DNA from: a virus
Reading direction: 5' to 3' (one strand)
DNA: 64,000 nucleotides
IMG/VR virus record: IMGVR_UViG_3300043449_000492
Span: 105,070-169,069 of that record
Shown here: in pieces, positions 13,982 through 37,723 of the stretch
Layout: each line of letters starts with the position of its first letter
Numbering within the stretch: position 1 is the stretch's first letter
Translations under genes and position numbers: made by a program
Notes under the pieces: generated by a model
What the model was told of the DNA's origin: nothing
The model's database searches: none
The model's input: the letters and a program-made list of their open reading frames with translations, nothing else

Positions 13982-15364
13982 ATGAGCTACAACAAACTTG
14001 TAATCTTTGACCTTGATGGTGTTCTCCTAGATTCCCGTGATCTACATTTCCATGCATTAAATGCCGCTCTAATGGAGCAGGACACGCATTATGTGATTAC
14101 AAGAGAAGAACACTTATCGACCTATGATGGTCTTCCTACCAAAGTGAAGATGAAGTTCCTAACCGAGAAGAAAGGTCTTCCTCCTACTCTTTATGATCAA
14201 GTATGGAAAGATAAGCAGGATGCTACAATTAAACTCTTGACACAATTGCAAGTTGATGATAAACTGGTACATATATTCAAGAGTCTTAAGGAACATGGCT
14301 TCCAGATTGCAGTTGCATCTAACTCTATTCGTAATACGGTAAAGATTACTTTGCTTCGCCTAGGCATTATGGATTACGTTGACTATTACCAAACCAACGA
14401 AGATGTGAAACGCTCTAAGCCATATCCTGAAATGTATTGGAATTGTATGATGGCTTGTAATGCCATTCCTGATACAACAGTGATCGTTGAAGATAGTCAT
14501 ATTGGTAGACAAGGCGCAATTGACTCTGGAGCTAAGTTGCTTCCTGTAGAAGATGCACATGATCTAACGTGGGAAAAGGTTGAAAAAGTGGTTCATGAAT
14601 TAAAAGATACAAATGTAAAGAAGATTCCGTGGCGTGATAGTAAACTCAACGTCCTGATTCCTATGGCGGGAGCAGGCTCTCGCTTTGCTACGATGGGTTA
14701 TACATTTCCCAAGCCTCTTATTGAAGTTCGTGGTAAGCCAATGATTCAGGTCGTTGTTGAGAACTTGAACATTGAAGCCAACTATCATTTCATTGTTCAG
14801 AAAGAACATTACGAGAAATATAATCTAAAGTATTTACTTAACCTTATTGCACCTGGCTGCAATATCATTCAAGTTGATGGAATGACAGAAGGTGCTGCTT
14901 GCACAACGCTCCTTGCTAAGGAGTTTATCAATAACGGTTGCTCGTTATTGATTGCTAATTCAGATCAATTTATTGAGTGGAATTCTAATGAGATTATGTA
15001 TGCTTTTAATAATGATGAGATTGATGCAGGTATGCTCACATTTAAGGCTACGCACCCTAAATGGTCATATGCGAAAATTGGTAAGAATGGTTTTGTTGAA
15101 GAAGTTGCGGAGAAGAAAGTCATATCAGATAGCGCAACTGTTGGTGTTTATTTCTGGAAACATGGATCTGATTATGTCAAGTATGCGGAGCAGATGATCG
15201 CCAAGGACGTTCGTGTCAATAACGAGTTTTATGTCTGTCCGGTATTCAATGAAGCAATTGCGGACAAGAAAAAGATTCGTGTAAAACAGATTCCAAGAAT
15301 GTGGGGTATTGGCACACCAGAAGATTTGAACTCTTTTCTAGATACATACAAAGGTGAACTATGA
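13982..15364 (+). CDS. HAD phosphatase / sugar-nucleotidyltransferase fusion
   Basis: DLDGVL, KP.P, EDS (HAD); IPMAGAGSRF..PKPLI, GTPEDL (NTP transferase). Confidence 0.9.
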   Translation: MSYNKLVIFDLDGVLLDSRDLHFHALNAALMEQDTHYVITREEHLSTYDGLPTKVKMKFLTEKKGLPPTLYDQVWKDKQDATIKLLTQLQVDDKLVHIFKSLKEHGFQIAVASNSIRNTVKITLLRLGIMDYVDYYQTNEDVKRSKPYPEMYWNCMMACNAIPDTTVIVEDSHIGRQGAIDSGAKLLPVEDAHDLTWEKVEKVVHELKDTNVKKIPWRDSKLNVLIPMAGAGSRFATMGYTFPKPLIEVRGKPMIQVVVENLNIEANYHFIVQKEHYEKYNLKYLLNLIAPGCNIIQVDGMTEGAACTTLLAKEFINNGCSLLIANSDQFIEWNSNEIMYAFNNDEIDAGMLTFKATHPKWSYAKIGKNGFVEEVAEKKVISDSATVGVYFWKHGSDYVKYAEQMIAKDVRVNNEFYVCPVFNEAIADKKKIRVKQIPRMWGIGTPEDLNSFLDTYKGEL

Positions 15365-15822
15365 GATTAATCTCCCATCGTGGAAATCTAACCGGTCCAA
15401 ACTTTACTGATGAGAATAAGCCTTGGTATATTGAAGAAGCTGTTAAAGCAGGATTTAATGTAGAGGTTGACATTTGGTATGTTAAAGGTAAGTGGTTCAC
15501 TGGTCATGACGAGCCACTTCATGAAGTAACGATTGAATGGTTATCTAATAAGAACTTTTGGCTACATTGTAAGAATGTAGAAGCATTTGAACAGATGACT
15601 TACATTTCACCACAGCTTCATTACTTTTGGCATGGCATTGATTGTTATACTCTAACAAGTGCTAATATACCTTGGGTCTATCCAGGGAAGCAGACATTCA
15701 AGACTGCGATATGTGTATTGCCCGAGCATGGTGAAGGACTTGATAAGATTAGGAATCTAGATGTGTATGGTTTCTGTTCCGATTATATTGAAAAGATTGC
15801 GGAGATTGTGAAATGCAAGTAA
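15361..15822 (+). CDS. PLC-like/glycerophosphodiester phosphodiesterase-like protein
   Basis: ISHRGN, EN, VEVDIW, GHD, CSDY. Confidence 0.8.
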   Translation: MRLISHRGNLTGPNFTDENKPWYIEEAVKAGFNVEVDIWYVKGKWFTGHDEPLHEVTIEWLSNKNFWLHCKNVEAFEQMTYISPQLHYFWHGIDCYTLTSANIPWVYPGKQTFKTAICVLPEHGEGLDKIRNLDVYGFCSDYIEKIAEIVKCK

Positions 15823-27823: not shown

Positions 27824-28505
27824 GATTATTCACCATACTGCTCCCAGGGATAAAACAAAATGGGGGCCACTCTGGAGTGTATGCCTAGATTCCTGGTATG
27901 AACATTTTCCTACAGATCAATATACTCATATCTTTTGGACAGACGAGGATCTAAATGATCTAGCTCATAATGACTTTGCTCCTTACTGGGATTTGTATTC
28001 ATCATTTCCTTTTGATATCATGAAAGTGGATATTGCACGATATATGATGCTATATAAGTTTGGTGGTCTTTATGTTGATATGGACTACTACTGCTATAAG
28101 AATTTCCACTCTACAATTAGTCATGTTGATCTAGTTATGGTTCAAGCATTAGGACATGATGAGGTTGTGCAGAATGCAATGATGGGTAGCAAACCAAAGC
28201 ATCCGTTTTGGTTAGATTGTTTAGAAGAAACTAAGCGTTTCAATTATAACTATATCGAAACACTATCTAAGACGCATTATGTCAAGGATATCACAGGACC
28301 TTATTTTCTCTCTCGTCAAGGAATGAAATGCACATATCCAATTCATATTCTTGACAAGAATGACTACAATCCTCCTATTGATTACGTTAGTAATAGTGTC
28401 ATTACAAGACATATGTTAACGAGCGTTTGGGTTGCAGACGGTAAGGATCTAAAGGAGTTTTATAAAGAAAATAGAAACGTAGACGCAGATACATTTAAAT
28501 TCTAG
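27813..28505 (+). CDS. GT32 (OCH1-like) glycosyltransferase
   Basis: MIPKIIH, DIARY..LY.FGGLYVDMD, NAMM.S.PKHPF, TGP. Confidence 0.9.
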   Translation: MIPKIIHHTAPRDKTKWGPLWSVCLDSWYEHFPTDQYTHIFWTDEDLNDLAHNDFAPYWDLYSSFPFDIMKVDIARYMMLYKFGGLYVDMDYYCYKNFHSTISHVDLVMVQALGHDEVVQNAMMGSKPKHPFWLDCLEETKRFNYNYIETLSKTHYVKDITGPYFLSRQGMKCTYPIHILDKNDYNPPIDYVSNSVITRHMLTSVWVADGKDLKEFYKENRNVDADTFKF

Positions 28506-28544
28506 ATAGGGAGATTCCTATTCTAGTTACACAAGGAGAAACTT

Positions 28545-29603
28545 ATGTCAAATATTTTTAATCAGCTTTTGGCTGAAACGGATAACGAATACGCTTCCGT
28601 TGTTGACGACGGTGTAGCAGCAGGAGATGTGTCAGGCTTCATTGGCACAGGCTCATATGCTATGAATGCATTGCTCTCTGGCTCGATCTATGGAGGTCTA
28701 GCCCAGAATAAGGTAACAGCACTTGCAGGTGAGCCGTCTGTCGGTAAGACATTCTATGCACTTAATATCGTAAAGCAGTTTCTAGAGGATAACGCAAATG
28801 GATTTGTTTTCTATTTTGAGTCTGAGTCTGCTATTAGTAAGCAGTTTATTACTGATCGTGGTATTGATGCTAAACGTGTGGCTATCGTCCCTGTTGCTAC
28901 GGTGCAGCAGTTTAGAACTCAAGCAGTCAAGATACTGGACAAGTATCTGGAGGGAAAAGAAAAGCCCCCGATGCTGTTCGTCCTCGACTCACTCGGAAAC
29001 TTGTCAACCGACAAAGAAATGAATGACATTGCTGAGGGCAAAGATACTAGAGACATGACCCGAGCCCAGCTAGTTCGTGGTGCGTTTCGTGTTCTTACTC
29101 TTAAGCTTGGCAAGGCTAAAGTACCACTGATTGTTACTAACCATGTTTACGATGTTGTTGGTTCATATGTACCAATGAAGAAGATGGGTGGCGGCTCTGG
29201 ACTAGAGTATGCAGCTTCCACTATTATCTTTCTATCAAAGAAGAAGGATAAGACTCTGGACAATGATGACGGACGAACTGGTGCAGTCATTACAGCACAT
29301 ACCAAGAAGTCTCGTATGACTGTTGAAGACCGTAAGGTAGAAACCTGGCTCAACTATCAAACAGGGTTGGACAAGTATTATGGCTTGCTCGACCTTGCAG
29401 AGCGTTATGGTATCGTCAAGAAGATTGCCAACAAGTATGAGTTTCCTGACGGAACTAAGGCATTTGAGTCGCAAATCAAAAAGAATCCAGAAAAGTTCTT
29501 TACAAGTGATCTATTACATGCTATAAATGAAGGGTGTGAAGCAGACTTTCTTTACGGAAAGTATAGTGTAGAGGAAGAGGAAGATAATGCTCCCACAGCA
29601 TGA
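28545..29603 (+). CDS. uvsX: RecA-like recombinase
   Basis: GEPSVGKT, LDSLGNL, DMTRA, MGGGSG..YAAS. Confidence 0.96.
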   Translation: MSNIFNQLLAETDNEYASVVDDGVAAGDVSGFIGTGSYAMNALLSGSIYGGLAQNKVTALAGEPSVGKTFYALNIVKQFLEDNANGFVFYFESESAISKQFITDRGIDAKRVAIVPVATVQQFRTQAVKILDKYLEGKEKPPMLFVLDSLGNLSTDKEMNDIAEGKDTRDMTRAQLVRGAFRVLTLKLGKAKVPLIVTNHVYDVVGSYVPMKKMGGGSGLEYAASTIIFLSKKKDKTLDNDDGRTGAVITAHTKKSRMTVEDRKVETWLNYQTGLDKYYGLLDLAERYGIVKKIANKYEFPDGTKAFESQIKKNPEKFFTSDLLHAINEGCEADFLYGKYSVEEEEDNAPTA

Positions 29604-32298: not shown

Positions 32299-32375
32299 GG
32301 TCCCGTAGCTCAGCCGGATAGAGCATCTGCCTTCTAAGCAGAGGGTCGCACGTTCGAATCGTGCCGGGATCGCCA
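32299..32375 (+). tRNA. tRNA-Arg(TCT)
   Basis: full cloverleaf, CCA. Confidence 0.95.
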
Positions 32376-32379
32376 ATTT

Positions 32380-32471
32380 GGGGGTGGGTGTTGGTACACA
32401 GGGAGGCCTTATAAGCCTTCTAGCGGCAGATTACCGTTCTCGACAGGGTTCGAATCCTTGCACCCCTACCA
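32380..32471 (+). tRNA. atypical tRNA with TAT anticodon (Ile?) and long V-arm
   Basis: GGGGGTG/CACCCCT-ACCA, GAGGC-CTTATAA-GCCTT, TTCGAAT T-loop. Confidence 0.75.
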
Positions 32472-32501
32472 AAAAAGTGAGAAAAAACGTAAAAATATCG
32501 C

Positions 32502-32530
32502 TTGACATTACTGTTTGTGTGCTATATAAT
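32502..32530 (+). promoter_or_regulatory. sigma70-type promoter
   Basis: TTGACA-N17-TATAAT. Confidence 0.85.
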
Positions 32531-32563
32531 GATGCAACAATGAAACTTCGGAGAGTGCGAACG

Positions 32564-32758
32564 ATGAAGGACGAGAACGTAAAGAGAGAATCCTACTGGA
32601 TAGTCGAAATGGCTCAGGGTGAGAAGGTATTATACCAGAACACCTTTAAGAATTTCGAGTCTGCTTGGACCAAGTATGAGTCCTTCAAAGAGAAGGATAT
32701 AAAGGGTAAGGCTTCTGTCATGTTACAGAGACGTTACAAGGAATACAAGATAGCTTAA
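32564..32758 (+). CDS. hypothetical protein
   Basis: GGAG SD; 3' part of track ORF 32378..32758. Confidence 0.6.
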   Translation: MKDENVKRESYWIVEMAQGEKVLYQNTFKNFESAWTKYESFKEKDIKGKASVMLQRRYKEYKIA

Positions 32759-32899
32759 CTGACATGAAGGACGGTACCCGTATGCGAAACGGGGAGAACA
32801 TTCTGGGTGATCGCACATCTGGCATTAAGTATCCGTTAAACCCTTTGGTAAATGACGGAGCGTTTCTTCTTCTTAATGCGTATAAATGGAGATAGTGAA

Positions 32900-33142
32900 A
32901 TGAAGTATGCAATTATTGGTATCGCTATGTTAGTCTCGGGTGCTGCTTTCGCTGCTCCGTATGGCACTTACCAGAATCCTGTTCAGGATCCGCCGTTCAC
33001 TGGTGATTGGTCCGTTCCAGTTCATCGTGGCTTGTATTGTGTCCAGGGAACTTGGCACTATGGTTGGCTTCGTCCTTGGGAAGGTCAGATGGTTGTGAAG
33101 TCGTCATGTGGAACCGCTGTTTATCAGGTTCCTGTTAACTAA
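32900..33142 (+). CDS. small secreted protein
   Basis: signal peptide MKYAIIGIAMLVSGAAFA. Confidence 0.7.
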   Translation: MKYAIIGIAMLVSGAAFAAPYGTYQNPVQDPPFTGDWSVPVHRGLYCVQGTWHYGWLRPWEGQMVVKSSCGTAVYQVPVN

Positions 33143-33148
33143 TACAAT

Positions 33149-33223
33149 GGGGCATGAGTCGGACGCTAAGGCGCAGGACTGCAAATCCTTGAGAACCCGG
33201 TTGAACTCCGGGATGCCCCTCCA
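33149..33223 (+). tRNA. tRNA-Cys(GCA)
   Basis: cloverleaf, U73, CCA. Confidence 0.85.
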
Positions 33224-33329
33224 TTTCTTTCATAAGTGTTCTCGCCTAGAGAACATGGTTGCAAACTTGCTAGGTCGTTTCTTGGATAAGCTGAAATAGG
33301 CAAAGCGGAGAACACTTATGAAAGAAATG
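33222..33329 (+). ncRNA. putative ncRNA closed by a 22-bp perfect stem
   Basis: CATTTCTTTCATAAGTGTTCTC / GAGAACACTTATGAAAGAAATG. Confidence 0.5.
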
Positions 33330-33334
33330 AACAT

Positions 33335-33410
33335 TTCCCGATAGCTCAGTTGGTAGAGCAAGCGACTGTTAATCGCTGTGTCCCTGGTTCGAGCCCAGGT
33401 CGGGAAGCCA
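33335..33410 (+). tRNA. tRNA-Asn(GTT)
   Basis: cloverleaf, CCA. Confidence 0.95.
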
Positions 33411-33482
33411 ATACTATAGTGGTCTACTGGAATGATGCCACGTCGGATAAGCAAGCAACGGCAAGTTGCTTCACCACTATAT

Positions 33483-33558
33483 GGGTCCATAGCTCAATAG
33501 GTAGAGCAAGGGTCTTTTAAACCCAAGGTTCCGAGTTCAAATCTCGGTGGACCCTCCA
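33483..33558 (+). tRNA. tRNA-Lys(TTT)
   Basis: cloverleaf, CCA. Confidence 0.93.
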
Positions 33559-33559
33559 T

Positions 33560-33635
33560 GCTGGTATAGCTCAGACGGTAGAGCAGTTGCCTCGTAAGCA
33601 TCAGGTCGTGGGTTCGATTCCTGCTACCAGCACCA
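33560..33635 (+). tRNA. tRNA-Thr(CGT)
   Basis: cloverleaf, CCA. Confidence 0.92.
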
Positions 33636-33650
33636 CTTTTATAGAGAGTA

Positions 33651-34190
33651 ATGAGTATAAAGCATAAACATCACATTATACCGAGGCATATGGGCGGAAC
33701 AGATGATTCAACAAACATCGTTGACCTGACGATAGAGGAACATGCCGAAGCGCACAGAATCTTGTATGAGAAATATGGTAATGAGAAAGATAAACTTGCT
33801 TGGCAAGGATTGCTTGGTCTTGTTCCAAAAGCTGATATTATGCAAAGTCTTCATCGATTAGGTAGAGAGAAGGCAGATAACATTATAAAAGAAAAATATG
33901 GAGTATCTAATCCAGGTCAGTTGTTACATAATAGACAAAGAACCTCGGAACAAAATAGAAGACTACATAAAGAAGGTAGAATGTCCGCTCCTGATTGGAC
34001 GGGCAAAAAACATAGAGAAGAAACGAAACGATTGATTGGAGCGAAAAACTCAGTGATACAATCGGGGAGTGGAAACTCACAGTTCGGTACTATGTGGATA
34101 ACAGATGGCAAACAGAGTAAAAAGATAAAAAGAGTAGATGCTATACCCGAAGGATGGTATAGAGGTAGAGTTATTGCGGACGTGGTATAG
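33651..34190 (+). mobile_element. free-standing HNH homing endonuclease
   Basis: [13 protein letters not shown]...N...LT.EEH..AH; NUMOD3-like [12 protein letters not shown]. Confidence 0.85.
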
Positions 34191-34251
34191 ATAGATGTGC
34201 CCTAGACTTCCAATCTAGAGAGGACCAGAGCGTTACTGGCCGTCCGCTCCA
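34176..34251 (+). tRNA. tRNA-Gly(TCC), non-canonical D/T loops
   Basis: GCGGACG/CGTCCGC-TCCA; CTAGA-CTTCCAA-TCTAG. Confidence 0.8.
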
Positions 34252-34463
34252 ATAACCATCATAGGAGTTGAACGCCCTATGGTCACTATATATTCTCTGA
34301 GTTGTCGAGGTATATAGACATGAGTATCTGGCTACTCGGAGGTCCAGAAGACAACTCGTCTTATCAGTTCAATAATCTGCCACAACGAAATAGTGGCTGG
34401 GAGATAGTAGTAACTCCCGACGAGTTCGTCCATGGGGCCGACGTTAAATGTCCCCACCAGTTT

Positions 34464-34538
34464 AGCGGGTGGGTGGTTTAGTATCACAGGTGCCTCATAC
34501 GCACCTAGAAGTGGGGGCAGATCCCACACCCGCTTCCA
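34464..34538 (+). tRNA. tRNA-Met/Ile2(CAT), non-canonical T loop
   Basis: AGCGGGT/ACCCGCT-TCCA; GGTGC-CTCATAC-GCACC. Confidence 0.75.
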
Positions 34539-34550
34539 ATAACCGTGCTT

Positions 34551-34642
34551 GGCCCGTCACGGCATATAAATCTTTCGGGGGTCAACATTAGGGGTTCGCC
34601 TTCCATCGTGAGCGCCTTGTGTCAATGGCTAACGGGCCGCCA
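34551..34642 (+). ncRNA. tRNA-like RNA with acceptor stem and CCA but no cloverleaf
   Basis: GGCCCGT/ACGGGCC-G-CCA. Confidence 0.55.
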
Positions 34643-34646
34643 GTTT

Positions 34647-34720
34647 ATCGGTGTGGTGTAATGGTAGCACAAGGGTCTCCAAAACTCTTAGTTGGGGTTC
34701 GAATCCTCACTCCGGTGCCA
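34647..34720 (+). tRNA. tRNA-Trp(CCA)
   Basis: cloverleaf with one acceptor mismatch, CCA. Confidence 0.88.
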
Positions 34721-34721
34721 G

Positions 34722-34824
34722 TATTATAATGTGAGTGGATAACTATCAGGACGCTGCCGTTGAAGTGGGATATCGGGTTGATCGCCGAGAAGACATGGAG
34801 GGGTTATCCACTCTCATTATAATA
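34722..34824 (+). ncRNA. putative ncRNA closed by a 22-nt stem (1 mismatch)
   Basis: TATTATAATGTGAGTGGATAAC / GTTATCCACTCTCATTATAATA. Confidence 0.5.
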
Positions 34825-34827
34825 TAT

Positions 34828-34905
34828 CGGGGTGTAGCGCAGTCTGGTTAGCGTGGCTGATTTGGAGTCAGTAGGTCGCAGGTTCGAATCCTGCTACCCC
34901 GACCA
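34828..34905 (+). tRNA. tRNA-Pro(TGG)
   Basis: cloverleaf, CCA. Confidence 0.95.
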
Positions 34906-34923
34906 ACAGAAGAGGATAATTAA

Positions 34924-35109
34924 ATGTTTGAGATTACAGAACAGACAAAGGTCGCAGCAGTGGAAGCAATGCGTGAAGCACTTCTATCAGGTGTAAATGA
35001 AGACGTTCTTAAGAGCGTTTTGGCAGGACATGAAGCTGACTTTGATGCTCGTCTTGGTGCTGCTTTCGATGCTGCTGTTGTTTGTGTTAAGGCACAGTTC
35101 GGCATGTAA
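34924..35109 (+). CDS. hypothetical protein
   Basis: GAGGA SD; sits between tRNAs. Confidence 0.65.
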   Translation: MFEITEQTKVAAVEAMREALLSGVNEDVLKSVLAGHEADFDARLGAAFDAAVVCVKAQFGM

Positions 35110-35118
35110 TGATTATGT

Positions 35119-35204
35119 GGATCGTGGGCAGGATGGTAATGCAGCGGTTTGCTAAACCGTAGAACCGCAAGGTTCAATTGGTTCGACTCCAATACGATCC
35201 GCCA
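35119..35204 (+). tRNA. tRNA-Ser(GCT)
   Basis: V-arm, G73, CCA. Confidence 0.92.
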
Positions 35205-35288
35205 GGAGGATAGCGTTCATGGTGAGCGAAGCGTCTTGAAAACGCTGCCCCCGAAAGGGTGATGGTTCGATTCCTTTATCCTCCGCCA
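35205..35288 (+). tRNA. tRNA-Ser(TGA)
   Basis: V-arm, G73, CCA. Confidence 0.88.
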
Positions 35289-35538
35289 AAGATTAGGTCA
35301 AAAGAATGCTAAAGTTACTACTTGTGTTATGGATATCAATAGGGATTTTAGCATTTCTCTTGAGCCTAGGAGATAGATAGATGTAGCATGTATAGCAGGG
35401 CCTCCAAGCCTAGACATGCCTGACCGAAGCACAGCCACCTTGATTGATCGTCTATGGGTGCGTCGAGGCCTAGGAAGGTGGGGCATACGATCTGACCCTT
35501 AGAAGGAGTAGCGCCCTTCCTCTATCTTATAAGTTTAT

Positions 35539-35614
35539 GGATCCTTAGCTCAGTTGGTAGAGCGTCTGCTTTACACGCAGAATGTCGGCAGTTCGAACCT
35601 GTCAGGATCTACCA
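35539..35614 (+). tRNA. tRNA-Val(TAC)
   Basis: cloverleaf, CCA. Confidence 0.95.
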
Positions 35615-35618
35615 ATAT

Positions 35619-35695
35619 GCCCTTCTAGCCCAACTGGCAGAGGCGTCAGTCTTAGGAACTGAAGGTTCTCCGTTCGAATCGGAGGAGGGGCACCA
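35619..35695 (+). tRNA. tRNA-Leu(TAG), short variable loop
   Basis: TCAGT-CTTAGGA-ACTGA; 77 nt. Confidence 0.9.
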
Positions 35696-35696
35696 A

Positions 35697-35772
35697 GGCC
35701 TTGTAGCTCAATCGGGAGAGCGCCAGCTTGTCACGCTGGAGGTAGTCGGATCGAAACCGATCAAGGTCGCCA
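35697..35772 (+). tRNA. tRNA-Asp(GTC)
   Basis: cloverleaf, CCA. Confidence 0.92.
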
Positions 35773-35848
35773 GGGGGATTAGCTCAGTTGGGAGAGCGTC
35801 TGATTTGCATTCAGAAGGTCATCGGTTCGATCCCGGTATCCTCCACCA
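35773..35848 (+). tRNA. tRNA-Ala(TGC)
   Basis: cloverleaf, G3-U70, CCA. Confidence 0.95.
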
Positions 35849-35854
35849 GTTTAT

Positions 35855-35929
35855 AGACCTGTAGCTCAGAGGCAGAGCAGAGGACTCTTAATCCTCGTGT
35901 CGGGATTTCAAAATTCCCCAGGTCTACCA
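35855..35929 (+). tRNA. tRNA-Lys(CTT)
   Basis: cloverleaf, CCA. Confidence 0.9.
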
Positions 35930-35934
35930 ATAAC

Positions 35935-35991
35935 GGGCAAGTGCCAGGGGCATTCTAGATAGATGGGGTTCGAGTCCCCTCTTGTCCACCA
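35935..35991 (+). ncRNA. 57-nt anticodon-less tRNA-like RNA with Ala identity
   Basis: GGGCAAG/CTTGTCC-A-CCA (G3-U70); T arm GGGG-TTCGAGT-CCCC. Confidence 0.65.
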
Positions 35992-35995
35992 TTTC

Positions 35996-36070
35996 GGCTC
36001 CATCGTCTAACGGTTAGGACAGCGGCCTTTCAAGCCGTCAATACGAGTTCGAATCTCGTTGGAGTCACCA
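35996..36070 (+). tRNA. tRNA-Glu(TTC)
   Basis: cloverleaf, CCA. Confidence 0.92.
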
Positions 36071-36139
36071 TTAAATAAGAGTTGCCACGCTTCCTCTATG
36101 CTTAACGAGATAGATAGCGCACCCGGCAACTTACTTTTC

Positions 36140-36215
36140 GCTTCTCTAGTGTAGGTGATCCGCACGACTGTTTGAAGCACAGTAGGACTGAGTTTGATTC
36201 TTAGGGGAAGCACCA
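36140..36215 (+). tRNA. tRNA-Phe(GAA), divergent
   Basis: GCTTCTC/GGGAAGC-ACCA; ACTGT-TTGAAGC-ACAGT. Confidence 0.8.
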
Positions 36216-36375
36216 TGAAACATGTAGGCGGTATTATAGGAGCAACAAAACAAGTTGACTTCTATTGTGAAGTGCCATTGAGAATAAAAAACAACAATCC
36301 TATTAACTGGAATCCAGGCATTTATCTCGATAAAAGAACATGCTATCCAGTTTTGATTATTGTTCAAGAAAGATT

Positions 36376-36453
36376 GCCCTCGTAGCCCAATCTGGTAGAG
36401 GCACATGACTCAAAATTATGTAGTTGTCGGTTCGACTCCGACCGAGGGTACCA
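36376..36453 (+). tRNA. tRNA-Leu(CAA), short variable loop
   Basis: CATGA-CTCAAAA-TTATG; 78 nt. Confidence 0.88.
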
Positions 36454-36456
36454 ATT

Positions 36457-36533
36457 GCTTCTGTAGCTCAACTGAATAGAGCATCGGTCTTCGAAACCGA
36501 GGGTTGTGGGTTTGAATCCTACCAGGAGCTCCA
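36457..36533 (+). tRNA. tRNA-Arg(TCG)
   Basis: cloverleaf, CCA. Confidence 0.9.
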
Positions 36534-36538
36534 TTTTT

Positions 36539-36612
36539 GCTGGCGTGGTGTAAAGGAAGCACTACTGTTTGTGGAACAGTTAGACTAGGATCGATACCTG
36601 GCGCCAGTACCA
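36539..36612 (+). tRNA. tRNA-His(GTG), alphaproteobacterial type
   Basis: ACTGT-TTGTGGA-ACAGT; no G-1; G1-U72, A73. Confidence 0.88.
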
Positions 36613-36620
36613 GGAATATA

Positions 36621-36649
36621 TTGACTTTCTTCTATTCCTATTGTATAAT
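36621..36649 (+). promoter_or_regulatory. sigma70-type promoter
   Basis: TTGACT-N17-TATAAT. Confidence 0.75.
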
Positions 36650-36678
36650 GAAACATAATGTGAAAAAGAGAGGAATAG

Positions 36679-37149
36679 ATGAAGAAGGTATGGGTATTTG
36701 ATATTGACGGAACGCTTGCGGATAATGAGCATCGGCAGCATCACTTAGATGGTAAAAAGAACTGGGACGCTTTCTTTGCGGAACAGCATAAGGATGAGCC
36801 ATACCAGGCAGTTCTAGATGTTCTTCATGCTCTCGCTTTTGATCGCTGCAAGGTGCTTGGTGATAGAGTTATCATTGTTACTGCCCGTGACGAGCGGTTC
36901 CGTGATGATACACTTGATTGGCTGCATAAGCATATCGAGTTTGATATATCCGATAGTGTCTATATGCGTCCTCTGGGTCATCGTGGTAATGACGATGTTC
37001 TAAAGGTCGATATCATCAAGCAGTGGCTTGTTGATCATCCTGGTTATAAAGTTGGCGCCATCTTTGATGATCGTCACCGTATCATTGATGCGTTTCGTAA
37101 CGAAGGTTGGTATACCTTCGAGTGCAACCAGGCTCGTAAAGAGTTTTAA
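36679..37149 (+). CDS. PseT-like HAD polynucleotide 3'-phosphatase (stand-alone)
   Basis: FDIDGTLA...R, VTAR, YMR..G.R..D..K, FDDR. Confidence 0.85.
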   Translation: MKKVWVFDIDGTLADNEHRQHHLDGKKNWDAFFAEQHKDEPYQAVLDVLHALAFDRCKVLGDRVIIVTARDERFRDDTLDWLHKHIEFDISDSVYMRPLGHRGNDDVLKVDIIKQWLVDHPGYKVGAIFDDRHRIIDAFRNEGWYTFECNQARKEF

Positions 37150-37225
37150 TGTCCTGTAGCTCAATCGGTAGAGCGCAGTCCTGATAAGACTGAGGTAGTT
37201 GGATCGAAGCCAACCAGGACAACCA
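37150..37225 (+). tRNA. tRNA-Ile(GAT)
   Basis: cloverleaf, CCA. Confidence 0.92.
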
Positions 37226-37229
37226 ACAT

Positions 37230-37321
37230 GCGTGGGCGACAACGACGGTGGTGTTGTGACGGACTGTAAATCCGTTCCCTTTGCGGTAACATTGTAGGTT
37301 CGACTCCTACCCCACGCACCA
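37230..37321 (+). tRNA. tRNA-Tyr(GTA)
   Basis: ACGGA-CTGTAAA-TCCGT, V-arm, CCA. Confidence 0.88.
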
Positions 37322-37337
37322 AACTTGGAGAAGTAAA

Positions 37338-37640
37338 ATGAAAAAGTTAATCGCTGCTATTATTGCTCTTGCTTTACTCGCTACGCCAGCTCAGGCATGG
37401 TATCGTGGTGGATATGGAGGTTACGGCTGGCGTGGTCCTGTCTATAATAACTACAATTATTATGGTGGTTGGGGTGGAGGCTGGAACAACGGCTGGGGTG
37501 GTTACGGTGCTGCTGCTGGAATCGGTCTCGGCTTAGGATTGCTTGGTGGAGCTATTGCTTCTCAACAGCGTTATTATGGTGCTGCTAATTGTCCTGTGTA
37601 TGATTCATGGGGTTACATTGTAGCCTATACTTACTGCTAA
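37338..37640 (+). CDS. secreted Gly/Tyr/Trp-rich protein
   Basis: signal peptide; GLGLGLLGGAIA. Confidence 0.75.
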   Translation: MKKLIAAIIALALLATPAQAWYRGGYGGYGWRGPVYNNYNYYGGWGGGWNNGWGGYGAAAGIGLGLGLLGGAIASQQRYYGAANCPVYDSWGYIVAYTYC

Positions 37641-37648
37641 AGGTTTAT

Positions 37649-37723
37649 TCCCCTGTCGTCTAATTGGTAGGACGCTAGATTCTGGTTCTTGCTATCTAGG
37701 TTCGAGTCCTAGCGGGGGATCCA
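37649..37723 (+). tRNA. tRNA-Gln(CTG)
   Basis: cloverleaf, CCA. Confidence 0.88.

Follow-up and report, generated by a model that had tools for sequence, protein, structure and literature searches.

Mycobacteriophage DS6A encodes a transfer-messenger RNA (tmRNA) that consists of the tRNA-like domain (TLD) only, according to the passages of PMC4131195 and PMC11915505 that cite Mao et al. 2009; a molecule similar to it strongly inhibits tmRNA, perhaps via titration of SmpB (in the corresponding passage of PMC4131195). Forms of tmRNA devoid of a coding sequence (CDS) have been described in jakobid mitochondria (PMC3590771) and, with a length of ~65 bp, in plastids of Mallomonadaceae (PMC11915505), and these organellar RNAs are thought to rescue ribosomes without tagging (PMC3590771; PMC11915505). 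Synthetic tRNA-Ala minihelices, i.e., acceptor/T-arm helices with G3.U70, suffice for charging by alanyl-tRNA synthetase (AlaRS) (Francklyn & Schimmel 1989; Hipps & Schimmel 1995, as listed in PMC9976931). The present work deals with a 57-nucleotide (nt) element located at 35935-35991 (+) of a 64,000-nt stretch of viral DNA (hereafter the window; positions 105,070 to 169,069 of the IMG/VR record IMGVR_UViG_3300043449_000492) and with its relation to these RNAs.

The source genome is a complete virus record of 169,069 bp with direct terminal repeats, obtained from a freshwater metagenome assembly; the window comprises its last 64 kb. Judged by a gp41-type helicase, UvsX and other genes, with 57-59% protein identity to cyanophages and Melnitz-like phages, the source phage is a T4-like myovirus and kin of both. 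The reading regarded here as moderately probable is that the element is a real phage gene, kept by selection, for an anticodon-less RNA of the tRNA-Ala type, ~57 nt long, for which processing, alanylation and a role in trans-translation are proposed.

Comparison with known RNAs

The DS6A RNA was located at 28478-28560 of JN698994 (~80 nt; 34.7 bits on the Rfam tmRNA model). Like the element, it is phage-encoded and small, has no mRNA-like domain, carries G3.U70 and A73 along with a canonical T arm and an acceptor stem of 7 bp, and does not decode. The DS6A RNA retains the D-loop of tmRNA (UGG..CGAC) and helix 2a in capped form, whereas the element has a mini hairpin directly after position 8 and a 13-nt linker; the phage DS6A, a temperate siphovirus, has no tRNA array, whereas the element stands in a T4-like array, with encoded CCA, in genomes that contain a two-piece tmRNA. 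On this comparison, the TLD-only tmRNA of DS6A is the closest known analogue of the element. The organellar CDS-less tmRNAs likewise consist of nothing but a tRNA-Ala-like domain, which retains G3.U70 and A73, and lack a tag reading frame; they are demonstrably derived from tmRNA, mostly two-piece and accompanied by SmpB, whereas the element may originate from either tRNA-Ala or tmRNA and is found in a phage without SmpB.

Canonical phage tRNA-Ala(UGC) shares with the element the acceptor GGGC.../...GTCC-A-CCA and the T arm GGGGTTCGA.TCCCC; compared with it, the element is shorter by 19 nt, lacks the anticodon arm, has a 3-bp hairpin for a D arm, and is missed by tRNA finders. The synthetic minihelices are ~35-nt laboratory constructs without D-like hairpin or linker, whereas the element is a natural, conserved gene. 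The stable RNA species 1 and 2 of T4 (rnaC and rnaD; read by eye in NC_000866, 70908-71171, as 139 and 119 nt, adjoining the homing endonuclease gene segB) are also non-tRNA genes in a T4-type tRNA cluster, and rnaC ends in the T-arm-like CCGGGTTCGAATCCCGG; no acceptor module with G3.U70, A73 and CCA is evident in the pair and no sequence similarity to the element was seen, so that only the setting is shared. Taken by its sequence, the element may be viewed as a smaller, phage-specific and conserved version of the known "tRNA-domain-only" RNAs.

Structure of the 57-nt element

The whole element, CCA included, reads GGGCAAG U GCC-AGG-GGC AUUCUAGAUAGAU GGGG-UUCGAGU-CCCC U CUUGUCC A CCA and is placed 5 nt past tRNA-Lys(CTT) and 4 nt ahead of tRNA-Glu(UUC). 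The 5' acceptor strand GGGCAAG (35935-35941, +; G3 at 35937) pairs with 35981-35987 in 7 bp: G1-C72, G2-C71, G3.U70, C4-G69, A5-U68, A6-U67 and G7-C66; the segment 35981-35991 (+) comprises the 3' strand CTTGTCC (U70 at 35985), A73 (35988) and the CCA (35989-35991). The T arm GGGG-TTCGAGT-CCCC (35965-35979, +) has a canonical 7-nt loop on a 4-bp stem. A preliminary description of this locus had named the acceptor stem GGGCAAG/CTTGTCC, G3-U70, A73, CCA and the canonical T loop, and the sequence at 35935-35991 is as described there; a T stem of 5 bp had to be corrected to 4 bp (GGGG/CCCC) plus U.U at 49:65, a position that is U-A in one homologue (L247) and absent in another (L093, position 65 deleted). 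The acceptor differs, as had been noted, from that of the nearby canonical tRNA-Ala(UGC) (35773-35848, +; ARAGORN and Rfam), GGGGGAT/ATCCTCC.

About 23 nt occupy the place of the D and anticodon arms. They include a mini D-like hairpin GCC-AGG-GGC (35943-35951, +; 3 bp, or 4 bp with U8-A18; GG in the loop) and a 13-nt linker (35952-35964, +) in place of the anticodon arm and variable loop, which holds the palindrome TCTAGA and the 10-mer TAGATAGATG; palindromes in the linkers of the variants are at chance level (12-28% each). The hairpin, whose conserved AGG(N) loop may correspond to the G18G19 of a D arm, is found in all three sequence variants of the element described below; an alternative pairing AGGR/YYCU, in which AGGR pairs with the beginning of the linker, can also be drawn here. 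The mini hairpin of the preliminary description is thus real and conserved, whereas the TCT/AGA stub proposed beside it is not conserved in the homologues. The layout (position 8, D-like hairpin, linker, T arm) corresponds to a tRNA-Ala minus the anticodon arm and most of the D loop.

The 169-kb genome contains three copies of the 10-mer TAGATAGATG, each of them on the + strand and within the tRNA array (34188, 35374 and 35956): in the D arm of a tRNA-Gly, in a spacer at 35374 and in the linker of the element, with a variant at 36106. It is not retained in the homologues of the element; gene conversion or a shared recognition site could be meant.

Armless mitochondrial tRNAs span a size range that includes 54 nt, the length of the element without its CCA, and the array holds other non-canonical tRNAs, e.g., tRNA-Gly(UCC) at 34175-34251, whose D and T loops are aberrant. 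A decoding tRNA of an unconventional type, shortened like the mitochondrial ones and with the linker as anticodon, is nevertheless very improbable: in none of the three variants can an anticodon arm (5-bp stem, 7-nt loop) be drawn, there is no conserved stem-loop in the linker and no conserved U33-NNN-R37, and every phage with the element has a canonical tRNA-Ala(UGC). An anticodon-like reading of the linker was rejected, the linker sequence being unconserved; a remnant of an attachment (att) site was rejected as well, the element having both acceptor strands.

Neither ARAGORN nor the Rfam tRNA model at its gathering score gives a call at 35935-35991. In a permissive Rfam scan the best matches to the element were mascRNA (18.3 bits) and tmRNA (10.4 bits), both far under threshold; membership in mascRNA/menRNA (RF01684) fails (18.3 bits, E = 0.11, vs a gathering threshold of 42.5 bits), and this resemblance is generic tRNA-likeness. 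A custom scanner for a T loop with an adjacent 7-bp acceptor, applied to both strands of the whole 169-kb genome, returned the tRNAs, the 57-nt element, one 67-nt match without CCA and nothing else; since such a scan yields almost nothing beyond tRNAs genome-wide, the element is not a chance occurrence.

Homologues and conservation

Two further sequence variants were found. The first (L093:17326-17382, 57 nt) reads GGGCGAG A GCA-AGGA-UGC AUCCUAGGUUAUA GGGG-UUCGAUU-CCCC CUCGUCC A CCA and lies in a 69-nt gap between tRNA-Tyr and tRNA-Gln of a complete 172-kb phage (G001; gp41 76% identical). Its 57 nt are letter-identical in 5 IMG/VR contigs with differing flanking tRNAs; the spacer AATTAC precedes the copies, three different tRNAs stand upstream, and a diverged tRNA-Gln or another small RNA follows. 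The second (L247:3781-3838, 58 nt) reads GGGCCCG A GCC-AGGC-GGC ACUUGACCGGUCU GGGG-UUCGACU-CCCC A CGGGUCC A CCA and follows an open reading frame (ORF), with a C5 methylase gene and three tRNAs close by; it was found by a metagenome scan with a pattern whose only fixed parts were the 5' strand, hairpin loop and T arm, and its 3' acceptor strand, A73 and CCA are all present though unspecified by the pattern. The family thus amounts to three sequence variants of 57-58 nt on seven contigs (the window and six viral or metagenome contigs), and in the searches made it is confined to phage and metagenome contigs.

Three other patterns gave no further variants in IMG/VR; matches to the exact acceptor pattern there were nearly all chance occurrences in coding DNA. 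Among prokaryotes (one genome per species, 185,579 species) only chance matches without the 3' acceptor strand were obtained. BLAST of the element vs 80 related loci gave no full-length match, and a covariance model search of ~160 fetched loci gave no additional member. The same acceptor stem (GGGCAAG/CTTGTCC-A-CCA) is present in two unrelated viral contigs: L081:7237-7311 (+) is a normal tRNA-Ala(UGC), and L045:2069-2145 (-) is a 77-nt tRNA-like sequence of Ala type with aberrant D and anticodon regions.

Covariance model R2 takes its sequence from the window copy and its structure from the acceptor, mini hairpin and T arm; it scores 93.4 bits on the window copy and 47.4 and 40.2 bits on the homologues vs <= ~30 bits for any full tRNA-Ala. 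After the family itself, the model best matches tRNA-Ala(UGC) genes that have GGGCGUG acceptors and belong to related phages; short R2 matches in other loci were rejected as internal pieces of ordinary tRNAs or tmRNAs. In the model-based alignment (A3) all 42 pair cells (14 pairs in three variants) are standard, and when the 3' partners were slid by 1-3 columns as a control, 51-63% were paired. Compensatory double changes are seen in three pairs: 5:68 (A-U, G-C, C-G), 6:67 (A-U, C-G) and the third hairpin pair, whose C-G becomes A-U in L093. Invariant in the three variants are G1-C72, G2-C71, G3.U70, C4-G69, A73, CCA and the four T-stem pairs. RNAalifold, run independently, predicts the same three helices, and the minimum-energy fold of L247 is tRNA-like. 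Pairwise identity among the variants is 74-81%; the linker is constant in length at 13 nt and diverged in sequence. The L093 copy matches the window copy at 81% identity vs a median of 75.5% for the 18 tRNAs common to both phages.

An empty slot in relatives

The tRNA arrays were mapped in 80 loci around gp41 homologues taken from IMG/VR, and contigs of four other freshwater metagenomes were compared over the region of the element. In the array most similar to that of the window (L110) the order is Ala(5)Lys-ctt(4)Glu-ttc(4)Phe, i.e., the slot is empty. In contigs from two freshwater metagenome studies tRNA-Lys is likewise joined to tRNA-Glu, a single T replacing 35933-35995; one contig with the empty slot is otherwise identical across the next 108 nt. 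The element and its spacers form a 63-nt cassette (35933-35995, +; 35932 joins 35996 in the contigs without it) that some of a set of near-identical phages have and others lack. The array contexts of the element are Lys|Glu, Tyr|Gln, His|73-nt RNA, and a site downstream of an ORF. According to the preliminary description, a full tRNA at this place in relatives would have pointed to a recent deletion; close relatives are empty here, and distant ones carry a homologue of the same length elsewhere. By this comparison of arrays, the element is not the product of a recent local deletion.

Some of these data are also what would be expected of a decaying tRNA-Ala pseudogene or a selfish array cassette, the anticodon arm having been taken by an internal deletion and the remainder being a functionless hitch-hiker among tRNA modules: the element is dispensable, with Lys and Glu adjacent in L110, the T stem is imperfect in two of the three variants, the fold of the window copy is no better than that of shuffles, the family is small and rare, and the closest model matches beyond it are full tRNA-Ala genes with GGGCGTG acceptors. 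This explanation is considered unlikely, given that all 14 stem pairs are kept in variants only 74-81% identical, with three compensatory changes, an invariant G.U and a diverging linker, that the length is fixed at 57-58 nt with 100% identity in five contigs of differing flanks, and that the element is conserved to the same degree as bona fide tRNAs. As the compensatory changes, the constant length, the tRNA-level conservation and the slot/cassette behaviour taken together indicate, the element is a maintained gene and not a fresh pseudogene.

Proposed processing and charging

In the window the element belongs to a packed run Val-Leu-Asp-Ala-Lys-[57-nt element]-Glu, whose genes stand 1-6 nt apart. 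The region 35200-36500 yielded no promoter-like site; its single terminator-like hairpin (35502-35519) lies upstream of tRNA-Val. Because of the short spacers and the lack of a promoter-like site, the run would be transcribed as one precursor that includes the element. The 5' end of the RNA would be cut by host RNase P; at the 3' side, RNase P cleavage at the 5' end of tRNA-Glu would set a trailer, to be trimmed by exonuclease to the encoded CCA. These steps are suggested by the acceptor/T-arm stack, the T loop and the RCCA, which match established substrate rules.

Alanine identity in bacteria is determined by G3.U70 (major), by A73 and G2-C71, and by the minor G4-C69 and G20; G3.U70 and A73 govern it even in minihelices (PMC9976931). 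All three variants carry the major determinants G3.U70, A73 and G2-C71, which bears out the earlier idea of an anticodon-less RNA gene with major alanine determinants; "complete alanine identity", also claimed for it, is an overstatement, as C4-G69 replaces the minor determinant G4-C69 and no G20 can be assigned. Acceptors of the type GGGC... with C4-G69 are common to many phage tRNA-Ala genes. Since AlaRS charges minihelices and the determinants are present, host AlaRS would alanylate the RNA via G3.U70, A73 and G2-C71; with the anticodon arm absent, no codon would be selected. The RNA is thus probably non-decoding and charged with alanine, and would mimic the upper half of tRNA-Ala or tmRNA.

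The conserved portion is exactly the acceptor/T-arm/CCA module, and the array contains a tRNA-repair-type gene (PNKP phosphatase domain, 36679-37149) and many other structured non-tRNA spacers. This would suit a functional tRNA-shaped RNA that is uncharged or independent of alanine, i.e., a decoy or sponge for enzymes acting on the acceptor, T arm or CCA (host tRNA-targeting defence toxins, AlaRS, and modification or processing enzymes are the targets proposed), or an RNase P "punctuation" unit. Such a function leaves unexplained the invariant G3.U70, A73 and G2-C71 beside changing acceptor pairs, and no candidate target was identified; it is likewise judged unlikely and ranked after the pseudogene.

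Relation to tmRNA

For the alanine-charged RNA preferred here, the likeliest site of action would be the trans-translation machinery (SmpB, EF-Tu or the A site in ribosomes that have stalled), where it would be a competitor or a tag-less acceptor similar to the DS6A RNA. The phage of the window encodes a permuted two-piece tmRNA at 15077-15454 of the genome, with the tag AANDNAPFEGYALAA, the acceptor GGGGACG/CGTCTCC with G3.U70, and the T loop GGCAGUA. A permuted tmRNA is also present in G001, the phage of L093 (tag AANDNVPFDYALAA), and the element-bearing phage records checked (3/3: the window phage, G001 and G002) encode a permuted two-piece tmRNA. In contig L199 a small permuted tmRNA stands directly after tRNA-Gly. 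A complete related genome without the element (G005) gave no ARAGORN tmRNA in two regions with weak Rfam matches. A small permuted tmRNA-like gene was also noted after tRNA-Gly at L287:1476-1680, on a contig that carries the 57-nt and 73-nt RNAs as well; its acceptor piece ends ...CTTCCCCACCA and its coding piece begins GGGGAAG.

The 73-nt RNA is a cloverleaf with G3.U70, A73 and CCA, found directly 3' of the element in two contigs; it occurs at L199:4972-5044 and also in L226, L243 and L246. The loop of its "anticodon arm", CAACC-GAAA-GGUUG, is a GAAA tetraloop; its fold has a z-score of -3.6, and the Rfam models tmRNA and tmRNA_permuted give it 23.2 and 25.6 bits, respectively. Besides a full tmRNA, phages with the element thus appear to carry anticodon-less RNAs of the alanine type in no fewer than two kinds, in a sample too small for statistics.

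With tmRNA the element shares the alanine identity, the T arm and the lack of an anticodon. Several points weigh against the preferred reading. The tmRNA-specific stem-less D-loop (..GG..CGAC), helix 2a and the ..GGAC closing before the T arm are not found, and binding of SmpB is doubtful because the D-loop and helix 2a are missing; on the Rfam tmRNA model the window copy scores 10.4, the L093 type 17.5 and the DS6A control 34.7 bits, with a gathering score of 47. Genes for SmpB, a FemAB-type transferase, a CCA-adding enzyme and a peptidyl-tRNA hydrolase are all missing from the genome of the window phage (so that, for want of the last three, nothing points to an alanyl-donor pathway), and a phage with its own tmRNA would seem to have no obvious motive for blocking trans-translation. 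The minor bacterial determinants G4-C69 and G20 are absent, C4-G69 being present in all variants. Near-identical relatives do without the element, and the family is rare, a full-length match being absent from 50,697 GenBank phage records. There are three variants only, on seven contigs, the covariation statistics are thin and the alignment is fitted to the model; the minimum free energy (MFE) fold of the window copy is not tRNA-like and no more stable than shuffles (z = -0.71), and the imperfect T stem (U.U here; position 65 deleted in L093) could be decay.

As to the earlier proposal of a TLD-like RNA that jams rescue or titrates SmpB, the DS6A precedent and the co-occurring two-piece tmRNAs are in its favour, whereas the lack of the tmRNA D-loop and helix 2a and the score of 10.4 vs 34.7 bits are not. 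The element is not filed as a tmRNA; by analogy, it may still act like the DS6A RNA.

Other features of the array

The tRNA array of the window spans 32299-37723, contains 23 tRNAs by ARAGORN count, and has CCA encoded in every tRNA gene. The neighbours of the element are tRNA-Lys(CTT) (35855-35929, +) upstream and tRNA-Glu(UUC) (35996-36070, +) downstream, both called by ARAGORN and Rfam. Missed by ARAGORN are tRNA-Cys(GCA) (33149-33220, +; Rfam 39.6 bits) and the non-canonical tRNA-Gly(UCC) (34175-34251, +), the latter missed by Rfam even at E <= 1. This tRNA-Gly has the acceptor GCGGACG/CGTCCGC, U73, CCA, the anticodon loop CUUCCAA and the T loop AGCGUUA, and its D loop contains no GG; its 5' portion overlaps the stop codon of an HNH homing-endonuclease ORF (33651-34190, +) within the array, and L110 has an ordinary Gly-tcc at this site. 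A stand-alone gene for a PNKP-type HAD phosphatase domain (36679-37149, +; PF25109, 65.7 bits) also lies within the array; it and the HNH gene are reminiscent of the T4 tRNA repair genes and segB.

ARAGORN tRNA-Ile(UAU) at 32380-32471 (+) is unusually long (92 nt), overlaps the start of ORF 32378-32758, and may contain an insertion or be mis-called. Between tRNA-Glu and tRNA-Phe a hairpin RNA without CCA is predicted at 36079-36132 (+): MFE -18.6 kcal/mol, z = -3.7, with 0/200 shuffles equally stable; the spacer that bears it (36071-36139) is missing in L110, which has 4 nt between Glu and Phe. The arrays of relatives hold more tRNA-like genes missed by ARAGORN (L093:12952-13033, L095:6022-6124, L097:12270-12349, L110:15066-15145), in which the D arm is odd, the variable arm long or the T loop unusual, and many of their 60-180-nt spacers are strongly paired non-tRNA sequence.

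Conclusion

Genes like the 57-nt element are overlooked by standard tRNA and tmRNA finders. The tRNA arrays of phages are usually seen as devices for codon supply or against host defence; an array member that is conserved yet retains only tRNA-Ala's charging half implies a non-decoding job. The DS6A-type TLD-only tmRNA, the sole precedent with experimental work behind it, suggests interference with ribosome rescue; the present family is smaller, differs in structure and occurs in abundant freshwater T4-like phages. A wider proposal, put forward tentatively and held to be somewhat unlikely, is that this family of phage genes encodes the smallest natural alanine-accepting tRNA-like RNAs (57-58 nt, and the tetraloop-capped one of 73 nt), which, once charged by host AlaRS, would enter trans-translation or elongation and not decode. 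If true, stalled ribosomes would receive untagged Ala, or the host tmRNA-SmpB would be blocked, and the two-piece tmRNA or the proteins of the phage would evade host tagging; this would be a new RNA-based takeover of ribosome rescue. The element would offer a natural system for the minimal RNA recognized by RNase P, AlaRS, EF-Tu and SmpB in vivo, and for the question of why phages manipulate trans-translation.

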